Shown: positions 11,879 to 58,167, counted from the first letter of the whole stretch. The stretch: DNA of 59,623 nt, filler included, from Dimargaris cristalligena (GCA_003614675.1; 5 parts of 5 records of this genome joined end to end with filler, not necessarily neighbours in it), one strand, 5' to 3'. The notes: generated by a model from the sequence alone, not told the origin. Program-made: numbers and translations.

Positions 11879-11978
11879 NNNNNNNNNNNNNNNNNNNNNN
11901 NNNNNNNNNNNNNNNNNNNNNNTTAATTAATTAANNNNNNNNNNNNNNNNNNNNNNNNNNNNNNNNNNNNNNNNNNNN
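11879..11978. other. Artificial contig spacer (44N-TTAATTAATTAA-44N)
   Basis: Identical 100-bp structure occurs four times, with a palindromic TAA-rich stop linker in the centre. Confidence 0.97.
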
Positions 11979-23822: not shown

Positions 23823-23922
23823 NNNNNNNNNNNNNNNNNNNNNNNNNNNNNNNNNNNNNNNNNNNNTTAATTAATTAANNNNNNNNNNNNNNNNNNNNNN
23901 NNNNNNNNNNNNNNNNNNNNNN
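23823..23922. other. Artificial contig spacer
   Basis: 44N-TTAATTAATTAA-44N. Confidence 0.97.
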
Positions 23923-24184
23923 CGGATGACGAGCCCGGCTGGAAACCCCAGTGCCCGGTCGCTAAGAGAGCGAGTGGATCACTCACGGCCAATTCGATGG
24001 GCTGAGGTAGGGCCGCCTCTTGCATATCCAACGCGTCCGGTCTATGGGACCTTCCCCCGCGACCTCGTTGGGAATTACCGCGACCACGGCCTCGACCTCG
24101 ACCACGAGCCTGGCCCCGGCCTCGTCCCCGACCGCGGGGATTCGGTTCACTTTCAGCTGCCTTGGAAAAAGAGGGGTTTGCCAT
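23923..24184 (-). CDS. N-terminal fragment of an RG/RGG-rich (probably RNA-binding or nucleolar) protein, truncated by contig end
   Basis: MANPSFSK...RGRGRGRGQARGRGRGRGRGNSQRGRGG follows a pyrimidine-rich leader; the frame is open to the gap. Confidence 0.55.
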
Positions 24185-24597
24185 GTGACCGAAGGGATAA
24201 AGGAAGTGGAGAAGTAGGAATTAGAAGAAAAGAATGCAGCAATGAAAGAAGGGCAAGGGAAGACACGGTCAAAGAGGATAATAGAAGAAAAAAGAGGTAG
24301 TTTAATCTATGAACGCTTTTCAAGCTACAATTGGAACCTTGCGAGAAAAGGTCATCGGATTTACTATAGTTTTGTTGCGGCCGAATGTAGAGCATTTTAA
24401 CTCCTATGCATCTCCCTTTATATGTTCACTTCAGCTTGTGCCCTAAACTTAGGTCCACTCCTCTCGTTTAATATACACTCTTATTTATTATAAACACTAG
24501 TTGGTAGGCATTTTCAGCCAAGTAGAATGCTAACAAATGTACTCGACTGCCGCCCTTTAGTGGCTAATTATTGCGACAAAGAAAGTTTATTGATATA

Positions 24598-25308
24598 TCA
24601 TTCGGCAGTAGTGGAGTCTTGGGGATGTATTGTATTTATATGGCGCTTAAGGATATCTTTGCGATTGAACGCTCGCGCACAATTTGTACAGGCAAAGGGC
24701 CTCTCCTTGGTAAAACTTTTTAAGTGGCGGTTAAGTTCTTGTTTGCGGGAATAACTTCGGTTACATGATGCACAAGAAAAAGTAATTTTGGGACGACGCT
24801 TCCTGCAGACGTATTTTGTGAAATGGACATTGCGTCTGGCAGAGAACCTGAATTGTCTACGACAAATGGGGCACTTTAAGGGATATTTCTTCATAAAGTC
24901 CGACATCTGCTGATGGTATGGGCTTCCCTCTTCCTGCCACAGGTCCGGGTTGGTCGGGTCTCAAGGAACATCAGGGTGTTCAAAGAACGCATGGTCAGAG
25001 GGAGTGCCATGGGTACTATTGTCATCACGGTCCCTGTCGCTCGATTGGGAGCCGTTATCCGCCACCGAGGGAACGGGCTCGTCCGACGGGTACTTTAGTA
25101 TAAACTGGCCAAAAAGGGGTGATTGGCCCATTAAATCGGCCTCGGCAACTTCCTCGGGGGACATGCTGAGTTTGAGCCTCTCAATGTTCTGAGACAGCTG
25201 GTCATCAGTGAATTCACCAAAGTTGGGGGTTGTAAAACCCTGCTCAGAGGCACAACTGAGGGCTAAAGAACTTAGGATAAGTAGACCAATACAGTTTAAA
25301 ATATTCAT
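24598..25308 (-). pseudogene. Signal peptide + acidic linker + three C2H2-type zinc fingers, interrupted by one in-frame TGA (24963-24961)
   Basis: ORFs 25308-24961 and 24906-24598 share a frame (402 nt between starts) and the gap reads *DPTNPDLWQEEGSPYHQQ. Signal peptide MNILNCIGLLILSSLALSCA; fingers joined by a TKERPF linker. Confidence 0.75.
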
Positions 25309-28300
25309 GTTTGAGATTAACGTGTGAAAAGTGGTATGTTAAATAGACACAAAACTATGGTGACCAGTTGAGTATAAATAAATACTAGAAAATACTTTCC
25401 CGTTACAGTTGATTAATATAAACCAAACAAAATGAAGGGGGGATTGGGGAAACCGCCGCAATGAACTGGCTGAAAAGGGTATTAGAGTAAAGGAAGCTAA
25501 ATTTGATATGTGGGTGCACGGCCAGCTTAATTTATAATACCCGCTTGACAAACCGACCGGGCTGCATAACCTTAGCAAAAAATAACATCGGTAAGTATGT
25601 ATAAAATGACATTCACCCTTTGTTTTTATTTATATAGCAGAACTGGTTTAGTTAGGATTAGGCAGGTAATCCTTTGTGTACCCATGTTCCCTCCCTAATG
25701 CTCTTTGGGTTCACCACAGATTAGAGGGTACTACACCGAGCCGATTTAGTTATTCTTCATTTGTGCCGGCGTGGTACATAGGGACACTAGCCACTGCCCT
25801 TGTGAGTTATCGTTTCATAGTTGAATGTGCCCTCTTTATAGTATTGCACCGCCTATGATTAAAGTCACTTCGGGGTCATCAGCCTAGGCCTATTGGGGAG
25901 TGGTTCACTTCTTCACTGTGGCCACCACACGGAGAAGGTTCAGTGTCACTATAGAGTTAATCCCTTCATATATTTTTTTGGACTAGGCTCTTCCCCAGTT
26001 AGACTTAAATGGACCTCCTACCCAGCCTAGTATTGGCGTTGTACCGGAAAATCAAGACCATTGAAATGGACCTCTCTCATGAATATGGTGGGTTGGGTTA
26101 AAAAACTGACATATTCAACCTTTTATTCGGGGGGGAGGTGCTCTTTGCCTTGAAAACGGTCGAAAAGCGCCAAAAGCCCAATCTGGGAAACCAACTAAGG
26201 GGGACTATTCACTAAGTCCATTCAGATGAGGATTATATGAGTGCCGCAGACAGCCCCCCTCCCGTCGATAAACGGGGACAACCGCTACATGGACAAGAGT
26301 GGCCATTTCTAGTGCACTCAGGTATGCCTTGGTTGTTCAATAGTGATAAATATCGATTTCCGCTAATGATTAATTTGACACCCGTGTTTAGCTTGCATGT
26401 ATCCTGTCCCCGTCTATTGTCGTCAAAGTATTTCCATCAAACTCTGCTGAAAAATATGCCCCGACAGGCATAGTAGTATCTCCAGTTTCTAACTATTTAT
26501 GTTAGTTTATTTAGTTGCTCTACACCATTTCATTTTAACCACTTATAATGCCCCCTACCAACTACACTATTCATTAAGACTAACCATCCAGAGGCGCCTA
26601 TTGTCTTCTCACTACTGTCACCCTTTCTATACAGTTATATTGATATTCCTTTAGTATTCCCAATATCTATCCAGAACCCATTCCTGCATGTATTAACATT
26701 CTTGGCGGGCTAAATAGTGGCTATAGGTGCAAAATATACCTGTTCGGCCTATCGACTTCCCGCAATAAACGCTACTATATTTTTCAATTGCACCAACAAG
26801 CTGGCTCAGTTTGTCACCCCCAACCTAGTATATCTCCACTTCACGCAGCCTTAATTACCATTGTATCCGGGTGGCACTATTGCTTATACTCGCAATTACA
26901 CCTAACTATGGCTATGGTACATGTATACACTCTGCTCAACTTTTCAAGGACATCCGAACCGCATCTTCAAATGAGTCCGCTGTAATAGAGTGGTTGGGGA
27001 GTAAGGGGAAAGTGGTATGTGCTCTTGATACCCCGATATATCAAAATGTGGCACCCTTTATTGGGTGATATTGTGCTCCAATCAACATATGGAAGCCAAA
27101 GTAGCCTTTCACTCAAAAGGACAGCAGGTTGATATTTCCAACAACGATGCGCGGATGTCTTGGGTCATACAATTAGGGGTGGGGGTGGTGGTACGACAGT
27201 CTGTTGATACTACTTCCACCCCCATCCACTGGCTCTATGAGTTCCATTTATCCTATGCGGACGACCCATTTCAGTCTTGGGCGGAACCAATTGTCTGGGG
27301 GAAATTGGACTATCTGAAAGGGATGGTATGTCATAGTTAATTGCCAGCCCCCAGGTGTTATTACCATCCCAAGACAAGTGCCTGTACGGGTAGTTAATTA
27401 ATGACGAAGCAGTGGGGCCACTATTCAACTGGGGCCCAATGCCCTCTTTTGTTTTTTTGCCATTTTTAAAACACGTTGCCAGTGTCCATGGGCAGTGTGG
27501 CTTGCCCCAAAATTCACTTTGACAATGTATATGCAGTCTGGCTGAATATTTCACATATCTTTATTTGCGTGGGTAGTATCATCTGGTAGGTAATTAGGTG
27601 ACCTTTCTCCGACACTACTGGTAGTTTGATACTAATCAAATTATATTTTGGTACCCGAAGGGCCCCTCTATGTTTTACGTTAGTTCGATTGGATTTTAGT
27701 ATGCCATGCTAAATATTACAGTTACGAACTAGGGATATACCAGTACCACTTATGTATATAAATAACCCCAAGGAAACGTTTAGCGGGCACTTCTCTATTG
27801 GATTCTTTTGTAGCCCATTATTAATTGCAAAGAATAATACCGCATTTAATTCTGAATTGATTAAAAGAAAAAGGGGGAGGGTATGCAAGTTGACCCCCGA
27901 TCAAAATTAGCGGTTTACAGTCCTCCCCCTTCTTACCGGCCGATCGACGCAAAAGACTCGGAATAAAGGGTATTTCAAAAGCCGCTAATGCCATCCCATC
28001 TCTAGTTTGCTTTGCGAATAACGTATTAGGGACTCCCTTGTACATCAAACTACCCAATTTCCCTCCATTGGGCAGCCTAATAAAGCGCAAATAATCAGAG
28101 GCGTCTGGGGACAAGACTCGCAATCCACATTTGGACGCTTGTGCGACGGCTTTTCATGAAGGAGTATACGCAGTTGAGGTGCCATATTCAGTCAGCCACC
28201 ACGAAAAAATGAATATATAAAGGCAGGTGGTTAAAGTAACAATGCCCCCCACTGGCACCCTCTCCCCAGTAACACGTTCACGGCGGGATATCTCGTGATC

Positions 28301-35764: not shown

Positions 35765-35864
35765 NNNNNNNNNNNNNNNNNNNNNNNNNNNNNNNNNNNN
35801 NNNNNNNNTTAATTAATTAANNNNNNNNNNNNNNNNNNNNNNNNNNNNNNNNNNNNNNNNNNNN
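35765..35864. other. Artificial contig spacer
   Basis: 44N-TTAATTAATTAA-44N. Confidence 0.97.
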
Positions 35865-37921
35865 CGGAGAGCCTTTTCGTTGTAGTGGCCGCCACCAGCC
35901 AATTCAATGTGGTAGCCGGAGTTGAGCACGGCCGCGACGAATTTGGAGCTCACGGTGGAAGGAGTCATACCAGCAACCATAAGCGGGGGTTTACCGAGAA
36001 GGCGGCTCATTCGGGTCTCGATATGGAGCTGGTCATCGCACGTGGTGCGCACCAACTGAGGGCGGAAGTCGCGGGACCAGTCGGGGGAGTATTGCACCGA
36101 CTCTGGGCGGCTGTCGAAGAGAGCGGGCTTGTACGAAATGTTCTTACGGGTCCCGGTCAGGGCGCCCGCAAACACGATCCGCACACCGGTGCCTTCCTTG
36201 TTGCGGTTGGTCAGACTACCGATGCCAGACACGCCACCGGGGCCAAAATCCAGAATGTGGGTCACATCGGGCACAGCGGTGGACTTGACCCAGTAAGCGG
36301 TCCGGTTACAAGTTTGGGCAATCATCTCCAAGCTGATGTTACTGTGGTCGCGCAGGTCGGCGCCAGTATCAGTGGCCAGCAGGGGAATGGCCAAGTCCAT
36401 GCCATCAAAGCGCAGCTGGTATTTCTCAATATCCTGGGCAATGAGATCAGTCGCAGCCTTTAGGTAGACGGAGTGGAAGGGTACGGTGACAGGGAGGAAG
36501 CGGGTGCTAATCTTAAGGTGGCGCTTGGAGAAGGGAATACGAGACTGGTCAGCGCCCGAGGGGGCCTTTAGTTTGCGTAGGCGCAGGTTGAGCCCGTACA
36601 GACTCTGAGGGGGGCCGGTGCAGACGCAAGAGCGGGGCCCGTTAACCAGCGCAATGCTAATGCGGCGGTCCTCGGGCAAATGGGAGTTGGTCAGTTCCAC
36701 GTGTTGCACCACGTCGGCGTAGCGCAGGTGGGTGATGGCCAACATGGGGGAAGGAGTGCCTTCGTTGTGGTTCAGGGAGTCCTGTAGGATGACCGGGTTC
36801 AGGGTGGTGGCGGGGTACACCTGTTGGGCCCGGGTACCAAGCCAAAACAGAAGACCAAGGCCGCGTTCGGCATTCTGGTAGAAAGATTCCCAGGAGCTGG
36901 AGGCGGCAATCACGGCGGCGGAAATAATACCCTGGCTGTGGCCCGTGGCAGCCACGAAATGGCTCCGGACTTGGCCGGGGGTCAAGTCCAGAGTACGGCA
37001 CATGACCACATAGTGCATCAGCTGGGTCAGTCCGATCAGGGCGGGACTAACGGGGGCCGAAACCAGGTACTCATCGTCGGGCTGGGTGGAAGGGCGTTCG
37101 AGCCAACCCAGCACATCGAGGCCCTTGGAGTGGATGGTGCTAGTGTCCGGGTTGGCCGCGTAGCGACGTAATACCTCGGACATACGCTCAACAAAAGGGC
37201 GAACTAGGGGTTCGTAAGTGTTGAATAGATCGTGGGTCTCGTTGAAAAAATCAACTGACGTACCCTGACCTCCGAAAATAGCGAACAGGCGGGCGCGTTC
37301 TTCTTGGGAGGCCACAAATAGAGCGGAGGGCTGGGCGGCAAGGGAGGTGTCCTCTTCGTCGGCATCAGAGGCGTCGACCTCGAAGGACACGGTAGGGGCC
37401 TCGACGACGTCGGCCTCGAGAAGATTAGCTCGGGACCCGTGGCGCGAGTTAGGCCGGGTAGTGGCACGGGCACGAAGGGCGGTCAAGGCAACCAGATATG
37501 CATTGATCACGGTCTTGACTGCGGCCTCGGATGGAAGCTGAGCATCTGCCACGACATGAATATCATTGCCCTTGAGGAAGCGCTGGTGGATGTAGGAGAA
37601 CACCAGGCGAACCACCTCCATGAAAGCAGCAGCGGCCTCCGACAGACTCTTGGCGGCCTGTTGCACGCCAAATTTGAGGAGACGAGCGGAGAGTTCCAGC
37701 TCGGTCAGCTCGTCAGTTTGCTCGGACGGAGGGGCCTCCCCAGCCAGAGAGAGAAGGAATTGTTCACGGAGGTGTTCCGCAGTGGCCCACAAGGCACCGG
37801 GTATTAAAATAGAGATCTCCACGTTGCCGCGTTTAATCGACAGCGGGCGGGCTGCCTGGGAAAGCAGCTCAGTCGGGGCCCGGACGCTGACATATCCGTT
37901 GGAGAGCAGGGACGAAGCCAT
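35865..37921 (-). CDS. FAS1: Fungal type I fatty acid synthase beta-chain N-terminus (acetyltransferase + start of enoyl reductase), truncated by contig end
   Basis: RPLSIKRGNVEISILIP start motif, LFAIFGGQG, AT active site TGHSQG, LVNGPRSCVCTGPPQSLYGL, PFHS, ILDFGPGG, and ER start LGKPPLMVAGMTP...GYHIELAGGG. Likely ATG at 37921. Confidence 0.95.
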
Positions 37922-40900
37922 GGCTGACGGTCTAGGTATAAGAAACAAATGATGAGTGAAGGGAAGGCGAACACAAACCAGAGTTAGAATATAAAAATAG
38001 GACCAGTAGTCCGGTATCACAGTTGATCAAATTAATAAACGGGCCCCTCTAGGGTTTTGAGCCCGGTGGCCGAGGGGAAGCTTCAAAGCAGCAAGCCGCA
38101 GGAAACAATAGCAAGTTTGCCTTGTAGCCAGGTAACCTAATGGCACACCCAGAAAGGCGGATTACCGCGCCACTGCCCACTCGTGGTTGCCGAAGGGGGC
38201 TTAGAAAAGCCGTAGAGGTACTTACGATATCGATATTAGGGAGGGTGGGCTATGTAGCTAATTGCAAAGTGGGACAAGGATGGTTGGAATGAATGGATAT
38301 GCGGGTCGGTCAATTAAGAAACGCAGATACCAAGGGAGGGAGATATCTGTTTGGAATCCTTTTAAAAAAGAAGTGGGGCGAAGCCGATGAGTCCGATGCG
38401 GGTCGGAACGGATAAAAGGCGGCGCTAGGCAAATTAGAAGTGGATGGTCTAAGCGGTCAGCTCAACTCTCGGTGGCTATGTGTTTAGAGCAGAGAAAGGG
38501 TACAAAGGAGAAAAAAGGGCGGGGAAGCTCCAGGTGATAGGCAGAGGGGGTTAATAAGAAAGCCGAGGGAGCGGGAGAGAAAGAGAAGAGTGGGGGGAGA
38601 AGGGAGGGAGGGTGACAAAACGACCAGGATGGCGGCCAGAATCGAAGGGAGCACTTTCCTAAATTGGCAATGGTATTAAGTGAGGTGAGTGGAGTTGAAC
38701 CAGAAACATTAGTGGGCTGATGTGTGGGATGGGAAGAGAAAAATAGAACTGATGGCAGGCAGGAGTGTACTTAAAACGCTGGCCTTTATCGGATGATTTG
38801 GTCAACCCAGGACACAGAATATATCCGTTGATCAATAATACTCTTCGGTGGTGTTTTGACACCCTCTCCCCCTTCTTCCATCCGCGTGGGGAATTGCGGA
38901 TTAGTTGGCAAGCCACTATTGCCCTGTTTGAATGGTAATGACAGTAAGCAGGGTGAAGGGGGGGATGTCTTGTTGTGCTACTCAGCAATGGCCCTCTCTC
39001 CTTCTCTGGCCCTCCTACATTCGCCACAAGTCACACTACGCACAGGGCAGACTGGAATAGGAGCGAATCGAATCAAAGGGCTTGAGACCTTCCATTGGGG
39101 GAGGGGGGGTTCTGGGCACTGATAAACATCAGAGGCACGTTATATTTTGTAAATTACGAGTTTACTTACTGATAAATGGAGTATAGCAAAATGGATCAAA
39201 GCCGCGATTGAGACGTTGTCAAGGGCGTGTTTAGATATGGTTGGTAGTACCTACTTCAAAGACCCAGGCGTGGATAGGGGTGGTTATAGACAATACCTGG
39301 GCAGGTGCCAAACGCGCATAAATTGGGGGAAATGGTACAGTAACTGAAGCTCGGCAGTGTTGATCTGCTCTAGTGGGGTGTGGTTAACCCAGGGAAAATC
39401 CAAAGAAAAAGGTGGGGTTATAAGGAGGAGGCCAATTGGAGGTTAGATAGAGGCAATATTGGGACAGTTCACAAAACTAAGTACAGCTGCTGGGTTTGCT
39501 AAACCAACGAATAATGGCAGTGGCAAGGGGAAAAGAGGGCTTCCTTCTGAATTGGTCCTCTAATGTGCGATGCGCTGAAAGCTGGTAGCAGCGATTTTAG
39601 GATGTGTAGCTAAGGTGATATATTACACAGGTGGCACCAAATGCACTACGTCTAGCGCATATGCTACTCTATAGGGTTGTCCCCACACCAGGTGAAGGAT
39701 GGGATCAGGAATAGGCAGGATGGTCTAGGAGGACGTACTTTAAGCAGTTTAACTGGGGGGCGGATATACACAGCTGGGATGCTTATCGATTTGAGGGGAT
39801 TGTGTAGCTAGCTGCTATTCGACGAATAGAACACAGGCAGCAATAATAGGGGGGATATGCCAGAAGACTGCACAGTGGGTGTAGTAAATAGCAAAGTCAA
39901 AAAAAGGAAGGAAAGCTGTATTGAAGGGGGGGAGGCCGGTCACTAATATATATATATATATACTTGCCTATATTATTACTTATCCGTGCATATACCCTAG
40001 GGTGGGTTTGGTGTGTTGGCTATTATATGCATTTGGTTGCGCATGTATACACACCGTAGTATAGACTCTCTTGGTCTACAGGGATGGAAAGGGGAGAGAG
40101 GGTCTCTTGGAACTGGCTGGGACTGTGTATGTACTGGACTAGATTGGCCGACATCATTGGCCCCATCCAACAATACAATGCTTCCCTCCCCATTCATTAA
40201 ACGTCAGGATTCCTTTTCCCCTTTATTACACTATGCTTCGGCAACAAATCGGTAAACATGGGCGATTGGATGTGGGATATGGTAGGCGGGTTATCGCCGG
40301 GGGTTGTGGTGGTGGTTGCATATCTATGGATGGGACCATCCATCTATCACGCCAGTTGGCCAGCATGGCCGGCCATTGGTCTGCTAGGCCAGTCACTCGA
40401 ATCGGATGATAGTTGACAAGTGCGTGGCCTCCCTTGTCTCGCCACGTATATTGGTAAGAAAATATATCGCACCATCCATATACCATTACTTTGGACCATA
40501 TGGGAAAGGGGACTGCGTTTTGAAGCAGAGAATATTTAATCAATGGTGCCATTTCATTTAAAGAAGGGCTAGGAAACTGGAGGATGCTGGCTGGTTTGGT
40601 GAAACAAGTGGGGTCAGGGCAAGGGGAATAATGCTGTGTGTGGGTGTCGTGCTCTATATTATCCGCCCCCCCCCTTCTGAACCAATCACCTAGCTAAATG
40701 GAGGGTGGACTGATTATTTGATTCAGCATCATCGAGAGTGCCCCACTCTATCGCTCCTCGTTTATTCGCTACTTGGAAAATGGCCTGTTCGCGGGTTGAC
40801 GTGGCCCAGATAAGAACTTCTAACCCAAGTACTAATCATTTGATGCCTATTGCTTAGCCTTGGCAGAGTTATTATCATATCCCCCTTCCTTCCCTGGTAC

Positions 40901-45915: not shown

Positions 45916-46428
45916 ATGAAGTGCATCATTGCCGCCGCTCTTTTCACTGCCGCTATTGTCATGGCCGAGAATGACTTTAAGATGGTGAAGCCCGGTTCCC
46001 GCGGCTTCAACGACGATTCCGACAAGGTGGGTCCTTGCGGTGGTTTCAATGACGAAATGGACCCCATTAAAATTAAGGCCAAGCAGGAGTTCAAGTTCGG
46101 TGTGCCCAAGTCCAAGGGTTTCGTTGGCCTGTTCTACTTGTCCGAGGGAAACGACGTCAAGGAGTGGAAGCCTCTGCTCAACATTACCTCCGACGGTGGT
46201 CATGACGAGGTTGAGGGAGAAGTCGAATTCAAAGACATCGCCAAGACGAATACCAAAGGTACCGTGGCCGCTCACTGGTACTATGAAGAAGGGTCTGACA
46301 ATAATGCCGTCTACTACCAGTGCGTTGATGTGGCCCATGGCGACGATCTCAAGAACTCTGCCACCATAGTCCAGGCTACGTTCATGACTCTGGCCGTGAC
46401 TACCGTGACCCTCCTCGCCCGCCTGTAA
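45916..46428 (+). CDS. Secreted, probably GPI-anchored BIM1/X325 (LPMO-like) family protein lacking the N-terminal His
   Basis: Signal peptide MKCIIAAALFTAAIVMA; family motifs F...P.SRGF.DD....PCGG and YYQCVDV; hydrophobic C-terminal tail after KNSA. Confidence 0.75.
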   Translation: MKCIIAAALFTAAIVMAENDFKMVKPGSRGFNDDSDKVGPCGGFNDEMDPIKIKAKQEFKFGVPKSKGFVGLFYLSEGNDVKEWKPLLNITSDGGHDEVEGEVEFKDIAKTNTKGTVAAHWYYEEGSDNNAVYYQCVDVAHGDDLKNSATIVQATFMTLAVTTVTLLARL

Positions 46429-47704: not shown

Positions 47705-47804
47705 NNNNNNNNNNNNNNNNNNNNNNNNNNNNNNNNNNNNNNNNNNNNTTAATTAATTAANNNNNNNNNNNNNNNNNNNNNNNNNNNNNNNNNNNNNNNN
47801 NNNN
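47705..47804. other. Artificial contig spacer
   Basis: 44N-TTAATTAATTAA-44N. Confidence 0.97.
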
Positions 47805-56991: not shown

Positions 56992-58167
56992 ATGAGCGAT
57001 AACTACATCAAGGTCGAAAAGGTGGGCGAGGGTACCTACGGTGTGGTCTACAAGGCCCGCCAGCGGAACACCGGACGCATCGTGGCCATGAAGAAGATCC
57101 GCCTCGAGTCGGAAGACGAGGGTGTGCCCTCCACCGCTATCCGTGAAATATCCCTGCTCAAGGAGCTCGACCACGATAATATTGTGCGTTTATTGGACAT
57201 TGTCCACAGCGAAGCCAAGCTGTACCTGGTGTTTGAGTTTTTGGACCTGGATCTCAAGCGATACATGGAAACCACAGCCCCGCTCGGGTTGTCCGCCGAG
57301 CACGTCAAGAGCTACATGCACCAGCTGGTCAAAGGCATCGCCTTCTGCCACTCCCACCGGGTGCTCCACCGGGACCTGAAGCCCCAGAACCTGCTGATCG
57401 ACCAGCACGGGATGCTCAAACTGGCTGACTTTGGTCTGGCCCGGGCTTTTGGGGTCCCCCTGCGCTCTTATACCCACGAGGTTGTGACCCTGTGGTACCG
57501 GTCCCCCGAGATTCTGCTAGGCTCCCGCCATTATTCCACCGGCGTGGACATGTGGAGCGCCGGCTGTATCTTTGCCGAAATGGCTATGCTCAACCCATTA
57601 TTTCCAGGTCGGTAGTATTCTTTCATGGCGTGGGGTGTATATTTGCCCTGTATCCTCCCCTCCGCTTCTCGCGTAGTGAATTCCCTCCTATATATATATC
57701 TATCTATCGAGTTACTCGTGATTCCAAGCTAAGGAGCCCCGACGGAAATGCTGACCCTGAGGGAACACCATCATTAATCCTCGGAGCAGTAGGCTGTGAC
57801 TGTTCTTGGCTCTTTCCGCTTCACCTGGTCCTACGCATGTTATTTACCCGCTCTATCCGTAAACAACTCCCCTAAATCTATATATCTATTAATACCACCA
57901 CTACTCATAGGCGACTCGGAGATTGACGAAATCTTCAAGATTTTCCGGATGCTGGGCACTCCGTCCGACGCCACCTGGCCGGGGTTCACGAGCCTGCCCG
58001 ACTATAAGCCCACGTTCCCGACCTGGGAGCCCCAGTCCCTGGCCAAGCAAATTCCCAAGCTGGACGCCAACGGCATTGATCTCCTGGCCAAGCTGCTCCA
58101 CTATGACCCGGCGCACCGTATCTCGGCCAAGCAGGCTCTGCTCCACCCGTATTTCGATGATTTGTAA
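56992..58167 (+). CDS. CDK1: Cyclin-dependent kinase 1 (Cdc2/Cdc28); exons 56992-57607 and 57911-58167
   Basis: [43 protein letters not shown]. The junction PLFP-G|DSEID restores the GDSEID motif. Confidence 0.96.

Follow-up and report, generated by a model that had tools for sequence, protein, structure and literature searches.

On the minus strand of the Dimargaris cristalligena window (the whole stretch of DNA analysed here, 59,623 nucleotides), one reading frame of 236 codons runs from 25308 down to 24598 and combines a signal-peptide-like start, an acidic region and three zinc fingers of the C2H2 type, with a single in-frame TGA ahead of the fingers. In a second isolate this codon encodes tryptophan, and a different codon of the same frame has become a stop. 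We place about an even chance on the frame being the remnant of one lineage-specific D. cristalligena gene that is now a polymorphic pseudogene, and a decaying gene is most likely what we see here, rather than a working secreted regulator. Three rival explanations are weighed below with the evidence that bears on them; to everything outside these and the preferred reading we assign very little weight.

Under the preferred reading, the product of an intact ancestral gene would have begun with a signal peptide, followed by an acidic, aromatic-rich region and, after it, the three C2H2-type fingers. In its present state, each isolate would make at most a short secreted acidic peptide (115 or 80 residues), and the finger part would be left untranslated, or would be poorly translated from an internal AUG at codon 134.

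Parts of the interrupted frame

The window is fungal nuclear DNA, with Xrn1, PDI, the N-terminus of a fungal FAS-beta, Sin3 and a CDK-like kinase. The nearest named relatives of its PDI are from Dimargaris verticillata and D. xerosporica, at 45-46% identity. The parts of the frame, and the motif that follows it, are these:

24961..25308 (-): 5' ORF, 115 codons and its own TGA; a signal-peptide-like start, then an acidic, probably disordered stretch
25249..25308 (-): signal-peptide-like segment, codons 1-20, MNILNCIGLLILSSLALSCA; S-C-A before S21 gives small residues at -3 and -1
25066..25068 (-): codon 81, TCG (Ser) here and TAG in the second isolate (G>T at 25067, plus strand, run X5)
24961..24963 (-): codon 116, the in-frame TGA; TGG in the second isolate (T>C at 24961, plus strand, run X5)
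24907..24960 (-): 18-codon spacer, DPTNPDLWQEEGSPYHQQ; codons 117-133 are in frame and open
24598..24906 (-): 3' ORF with three C2H2-type fingers, codons 134-236; 102 codons and TGA (24600-24598), ATG at 24906
24805..24873 (-): finger 1, C146-X2-C149-X12-H162-X5-C168
24787..24804 (-): basic cluster RKRRPK, residues 169-174, between fingers 1 and 2; NLS-like by eye
24712..24774 (-): finger 2, C179-X2-C182-X12-H195-X3-F199; Phe in place of the fourth zinc ligand
Residues 200-205 (-): TKERPF linker between fingers 2 and 3; TGEKP-like
24625..24690 (-): finger 3, C207-X2-C210-X12-H223-X4-H228, canonical
24586..24591 (-): AATAAA, six bases past the final stop

The first-pass annotation had described the same succession of parts, without stating the strand, and all of them are present. 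The ATG of the 5' ORF lies in a good start context (A at -3), and the Kyte-Doolittle hydropathy of residues 6-20 averages 2.25. The N-terminus may work as a signal peptide. Residues 21-115 are acidic and contain much Ser, Pro and Phe; of these 95 residues, 19 are Asp or Glu and 5 are Arg or Lys, which gives a net charge of -14 and a composition that is strongly non-random. The ESM Atlas model of the 115-residue ORF is disordered (pLDDT 0.48). This composition is continuous across the TGA into the spacer, which has a net charge of -4 and is acidic and proline- and aromatic-rich like the upstream side. We take the AATAAA beyond the final stop to be the likely polyadenylation signal of a transcript ending there.

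Our crude signal-peptide rule asks for a hydrophobic core without charges close to the N-terminus and, after it, for small residues at -3 and -1. Seven of the 113 ATG ORFs of at least 60 codons in the window satisfy it, this one included; among these seven, PDI and a BIM1-like protein are truly secretory, and about 4 of the roughly 110 presumably spurious window ORFs satisfy it as well. The BIM1-like protein is encoded by an ORF at 45916-46428 (+); its 170 residues begin with a segment that clearly resembles a signal peptide and include a domain of the BIM1-like copper acquisition factor type (Pfam E 2.2e-07). As a genuine secretory protein it is a positive control for the rule.

The 3' ORF matched the Pfam family zf-C2H2 (PF00096) in two stretches at 40.6 bits (cut-off 25.2, E 2.6e-10) and zf-C2H2_4 at 39.8 (cut-off 27). 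Alignments to PDB entries paired the three fingers with consecutive classical fingers of ZFP568, CTCF and Zif268, and ADR1 (2adr) aligned to fingers 2-3 with an E-value of 1.3e-12. The full ligand set C-X2-4-C-X12-H-X3-5-H is found in one of the three fingers (finger 3). In finger 1, Tyr166 occupies the canonical second-His position and Cys168, two residues on, is a possible substitute ligand; in the PDB alignments both Tyr166 and Phe199 fall on canonical last histidines. Every detail that the first-pass annotation had listed for the fingers, RKRRPK and TKERPF was correct, including the replacement of the last His of finger 2, which is Phe199. AlphaFold2, given the single sequence of the 120-residue finger part, returned a poor model (mean pLDDT 57).

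The frame resembles the classical tandem C2H2 factors (ADR1, Zif268/EGR1, ZFP568, CTCF) in its consecutive fingers with the TGEKP-like TKERPF linker and, on our own reading, in an acidic aromatic-rich upstream region that is activation-domain-like. Unlike them, it has F199 in finger 2, Tyr166 and Cys168 in finger 1, and a basic insert as the linker between fingers 1 and 2. Its signal-peptide-like N-terminus sets it apart from ordinary nuclear factors.

Different stop codons in two isolates

Contigs from runs X1, X2 and X4, which probably derive from the source sample, are identical to the window over 24300-25600, and the TGA is present in all three. Contig depth was 49.5 for X1, 7.97 for X4 and 9.93 for the X2 contig over the stop. 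They are not independent of the window, yet they are separate assemblies, which makes an assembly error an unlikely source of the TGA.

Run X5 belongs to a different study, with its own sample of the same organism, and yielded one contig over the whole stretch at a depth of 206. Compared with the window over 1301 bases, it has 19 single-letter differences and no indel. At codon 116 the third letter of the stop is changed (TGA to TGG, Trp), leaving no stop there, and at codon 81 TCG (Ser81) has become TAG. The remaining in-frame differences are S18S, C19Y, G24G, L71P, P80L, N85S, S89T and S181P, the last within the Cys knuckle of finger 2. The same early stop is seen in the NCBI protein KAJ1985574.1 (H4R33_003935, hypothetical, D. 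cristalligena), whose 80 residues are 97% identical to residues 1-80; it carries Y19, P71 and L80, the three missense changes of X5 before codon 81, and ends exactly at the codon 81 stop. As X5 and this record may come from one isolate, we count two haplotypes, not three.

The stop of each isolate is a sense codon in the other, one of the features expected of a unitary (polymorphic) pseudogene. The first-pass annotation had suggested a recent pseudogene, and the polymorphic stop (TGG116 in X5) and the different stop of the other isolate both support this. Owing to TGA116 here and TAG81 in X5, neither isolate encodes a chain that carries both signal peptide and fingers. No intact allele was found among the two isolates compared, which counts against the one-gene reading. 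With two isolates and no outgroup, all four combinations of ancestral states at codons 81 and 116 need two changes, so that the ancestral state at these codons is not inferable.

The differences between the isolates also bear on constraint. Codons 1-115 contain eight of them (2 synonymous, 5 missense, 1 nonsense), and with 76 synonymous and 269 non-synonymous sites this gives a pN/pS of ~0.85, on 8 differences only. The probability of at least 6 non-synonymous changes among 8 is 0.005 under an omega of 0.1 and 0.06 under an omega of 0.2; the former is rejected and the latter not quite. On these few differences, the 5' part evolves without visible constraint. Its density of differences (9 in 348 bases) is that of the 5' flank (7 in 292).

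In the finger part, 1 position in 363 bases differs. We do not take this low density as a sign of purifying selection, since differences are just as scarce in the non-coding 3' flank (2 in 298); the contrast is regional and says nothing on selection. The shift in density falls near 24961-25044: 640 bases 5' of it hold 16 differences, and 661 bases 3' of it hold 3 (Fisher P 0.002). This shift could be a recombination or coalescence boundary rather than a trace of selection.

One gene, two genes or a live fusion

Codons 1-133 contain one in-frame stop, against 2-12 in the other five frames. In 5000 dinucleotide shuffles of this stretch the mean was 5.8 stops and the probability of at most one was 0.015, falling to 0.004 when the shuffles took their composition from the upstream flank. 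Such openness is more than chance would give. Codon usage was scored against a reference of 4074 codons from six conserved window genes. The 5' ORF scored +0.10 to +0.17, the best of the six frames and in line with the values of Xrn1 and the kinase; the spacer scored +0.29 to +0.35, again the best of six, with a GC3 of 0.78. The score of the finger ORF was poor (-0.19 to -0.25; GC3 0.44), which counts against the one-gene reading.

These measures bear on the possibility that only the finger ORF is a gene, for an ordinary small nuclear zinc-finger protein, and that the upstream 115 codons are a non-coding leader or a chance ORF whose hydrophobic start merely looks like a signal peptide. We find this improbable. 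By either kind of shuffle, non-coding DNA is unlikely to run for 133 codons with a single stop, the coding-like codon usage of the 5' part is specific to its frame, and its acidic composition is far from random; moreover, on any transcript starting upstream the well-placed first ATG would precede the finger ATG. In favour of this explanation are the flank-like evolution of the 5' part, with its high pN/pS and its one nonsense change, the lack of any homolog or predicted fold for it, and the handful of presumably spurious window ORFs that share a signal-peptide-like start.

The public annotation has separate models of 115 and 53 residues, and this too counts against the one-gene reading. The exact 115-residue ORF is on record in NCBI, UniRef and EukProt as a separate protein; the finger part is on public record for this genome only as a 53-residue piece (T176-H228, NCBI), and the 102-residue finger ORF itself is absent from the protein collection. 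Taken at face value, the annotation describes two genes that share a frame by coincidence, one for an orphan small secreted protein (115 residues here, 80 in the other isolate) and one for a small nuclear three-finger protein starting at ATG 24906. We consider this rather unlikely. Both versions of the 5' ORF are annotated proteins, and the ORF has its good start context, its signal-peptide-like start and its coding-like codon usage. The finger ORF, for its part, opens with an ATG of its own, is followed by AATAAA and shows only the one difference between isolates. Small secreted proteins of zygomycetes are reported in PMC9391592 to diverge rapidly among relatives.

The spacer speaks against two genes. 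From the TGA to the next in-frame ATG (24906) there are only 54 bases, which is too little for a terminator and a promoter where neighbouring gaps measure 0.4 to 3 kb, and out-of-frame ATGs are present upstream of 24906; because of this gap and these ATGs, an independent downstream gene would be poorly placed. The spacer is also open and coding-like, with the acidic composition of the 5' ORF. Yet if the 5' ORF were a gene of its own, a shared frame together with an open spacer would by our estimate have a chance of about 1 in 7 (1/3 x ~0.42), which counts against the one-gene reading. The missing record of the 102-residue ORF weighs against two genes as well, and the low density of differences in the fingers is common to the non-coding 3' flank.

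A single gene could, in principle, still be expressed whole if, in each isolate, an unrecognised intron removed the stop or recoding bypassed it; the product would then be a functional secreted zinc-finger effector. This we hold to be highly improbable. We calibrated the search for an intron on two introns read by eye in the window, one in Xrn1 (2973-2738, minus strand, 236 nt; GTAAGT, a pyrimidine tract and TAG) and one in the CDK-like kinase (57608-57910, plus strand, 303 nt; GTCGGT...TAG). Both junctions restore what we take to be conserved motifs of the two families. The GTCGGT donor of the kinase is unusual, and the introns of this genome seem long for a fungus.

Among the 73 frame-keeping GT/GC-AG pairs that would remove the TGA, none joins a donor like that of Xrn1 or the kinase to a pyrimidine-rich acceptor, and no GTNNGT donor exists in the locus. 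The least bad candidate intron, 25087-24923, also covers codon 81. Its donor GTCGGA matches the kinase donor GTCGGT at 5 of 6 letters, and five of the six differences clustered at 24961-25097 lie inside it, both of which favour a live fusion; its end is purine-rich (GGGAAG), as opposed to the pyrimidine-rich ends with TAG of both window introns. We rejected intron rescue for lack of donor and acceptor signals. We also rejected TGA as a Trp codon, since it is absent from long conserved ORFs (up to 1401 codons, in Sin3) and is therefore not a usual sense codon. TGA followed by G is not known to be leaky as a stop context. Finally, the same event would be needed over two different stops in the two isolates.

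Homologues, secreted nuclear effectors and surroundings

Our searches for homologs of 30-413 residues were made in a collection of 5.8 billion proteins, and statements on homologs hold for annotated proteins. The read-through frame, with X at the stop, had no match among proteins of 129-413 residues, and among those of 30-128 residues it matched only two records, both of this locus. None of 99 pattern matches in metagenome contigs was confirmed. The best score of the 115-residue ORF in the ESM Atlas (0.81) was at chance level, and no look-alike was found there. Searches of the window with the locus (tblastn and blastn) gave only self-matches at E below 1, and the locus is single-copy there. 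The first-pass annotation had assigned this copy to a family with intact members, a claim that these results do not support: the second isolate is broken at codon 81, and there is no paralog in the window and no homolog among the proteins or metagenome contigs searched.

An exhaustive representative search with the whole frame gave 68657 matches at E <= 0.001. Each of the 150 matches listed was a long multi-finger protein whose best stretch ended at query residues 220-234; none of these 150 aligned with the signal peptide or residues 1-59, and the best stretch started upstream of the stop (query residues 60-96) in 4 of them. As this search was swamped by multi-finger proteins, it is uninformative on the N-terminal part.

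The first-pass annotation had called a secretion signal on a C2H2 domain anomalous. This view has to be revised for fungi, since MoHTR1-3 of Magnaporthe oryzae are already known as demonstrated secreted nuclear effectors. MoHTR1 and MoHTR2 are secreted proteins that reach the nuclei of rice cells and bind to promoter elements (PMC7672089); MoHTR3 combines a signal peptide with an NLS in its centre and a C2H2 domain at its C-terminus (PMC10189765). The D. cristalligena read-through frame has the same order of parts (signal-peptide-like start, disordered region, basic NLS-like cluster, C-terminal C2H2) and would likewise represent a small lineage-specific protein of a biotrophic fungal parasite. 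D. cristalligena itself is described in PMC6784888 as an obligate, biotrophic parasite of other fungi. It is no pathogen of humans, animals or crop plants.

The differences from MoHTR1-3 are equally plain. In both isolates a stop lies between the signal peptide and the fingers, whereas in MoHTR-type effectors the two are on one polypeptide. The host would be a fungus for D. cristalligena and is a plant for MoHTR1-3. There are three fingers here, two of them non-canonical, and the authors of the MoHTR1/2 work likened those proteins to the single-finger GAGA. The intact protein may have resembled the MoHTR-type effectors and could have acted in the nucleus of a fungal host.

Two papers on the secretomes of mycoparasites and zygomycetes make no mention of 'zinc finger' in their main text (0 occurrences), and our search of the literature, which was not exhaustive, found no report of secreted C2H2 effectors in mycoparasites. 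We know of almost no effectors described from obligate mycoparasites among the early-diverging fungi. An intact protein with a signal peptide and zinc fingers would be a concrete candidate for a fungus reprogramming the nucleus of another fungus.

Polymorphic loss-of-function alleles are known in effector and avirulence genes of plant-pathogenic fungi. The locus is like them in that different disabling changes are found in each isolate in a small, lineage-specific gene with a signal peptide. Relaxed constraint explains the D. cristalligena data equally well, and both an effector role and selected loss are conjectural here. Along these lines, an intact allele, with sense codons at 81 and 116, might persist in natural Dimargaris populations and encode a haustorium-secreted zinc-finger mimic of a transcription factor that enters the nucleus of a Mucorales host; the two independent nonsense alleles might then reflect selection for loss, in the manner of avirulence genes, or long propagation on one laboratory host. 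We regard this scenario as quite improbable. If it were true, the protein would be the first effector of transcription-factor type in fungus-on-fungus parasitism and in early-diverging fungi.

The locus is better read as an example of the fast birth and loss of orphan genes, with two isolates that differ by ~1.5% carrying different stop codons. It also calls for caution with secretome lists, as the 115- and 80-residue fragments are recorded as separate hypothetical proteins.

The locus follows ~3 kb without a recognisable gene. Seven open frames inside this region have no Pfam family, and an eighth, tested at the far edge (28.4-29.0 kb), shows no more than a weak F-box-like match. We found no tandem repeats at 22-30 kb. 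About 0.4 kb downstream of the locus there is an RGG-rich ORF, followed by a CBS-domain gene at about 22.8-23.9 kb. The RGG-rich ORF, at 23923-24184 (-), has a long Arg-Gly repeat (GRGRGRGQARGRGRGRGRG...), is partly masked and has as its sole Pfam match a weak low-complexity one; it may encode an RGG-box protein or be antisense to the region of the neighbouring CBS-domain gene.

Farther along the window, an ORF at 35813-38020 (-) has a FAS-beta N-terminal domain and a SAT/acyltransferase domain and runs into mask. No further long FAS-like open frame was found downstream on the minus strand to 33.3 kb, and the ORF could be part of a truncated or an intron-rich FAS gene in an obligate parasite. 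The public protein records of the window are from contigs of 11842-11844 bases, which correspond to the intervals between masked runs. There are eight such runs, each of exactly 44 N, and they form pairs (12 bases between the two members) that recur every ~11.94 kb:

11879-11922, 11935-11978, 23823-23866, 23879-23922: 44-N runs
35765-35808, 35821-35864, 47705-47748, 47761-47804: 44-N runs (continued)

Their regular spacing looks like masking rather than assembly gaps.
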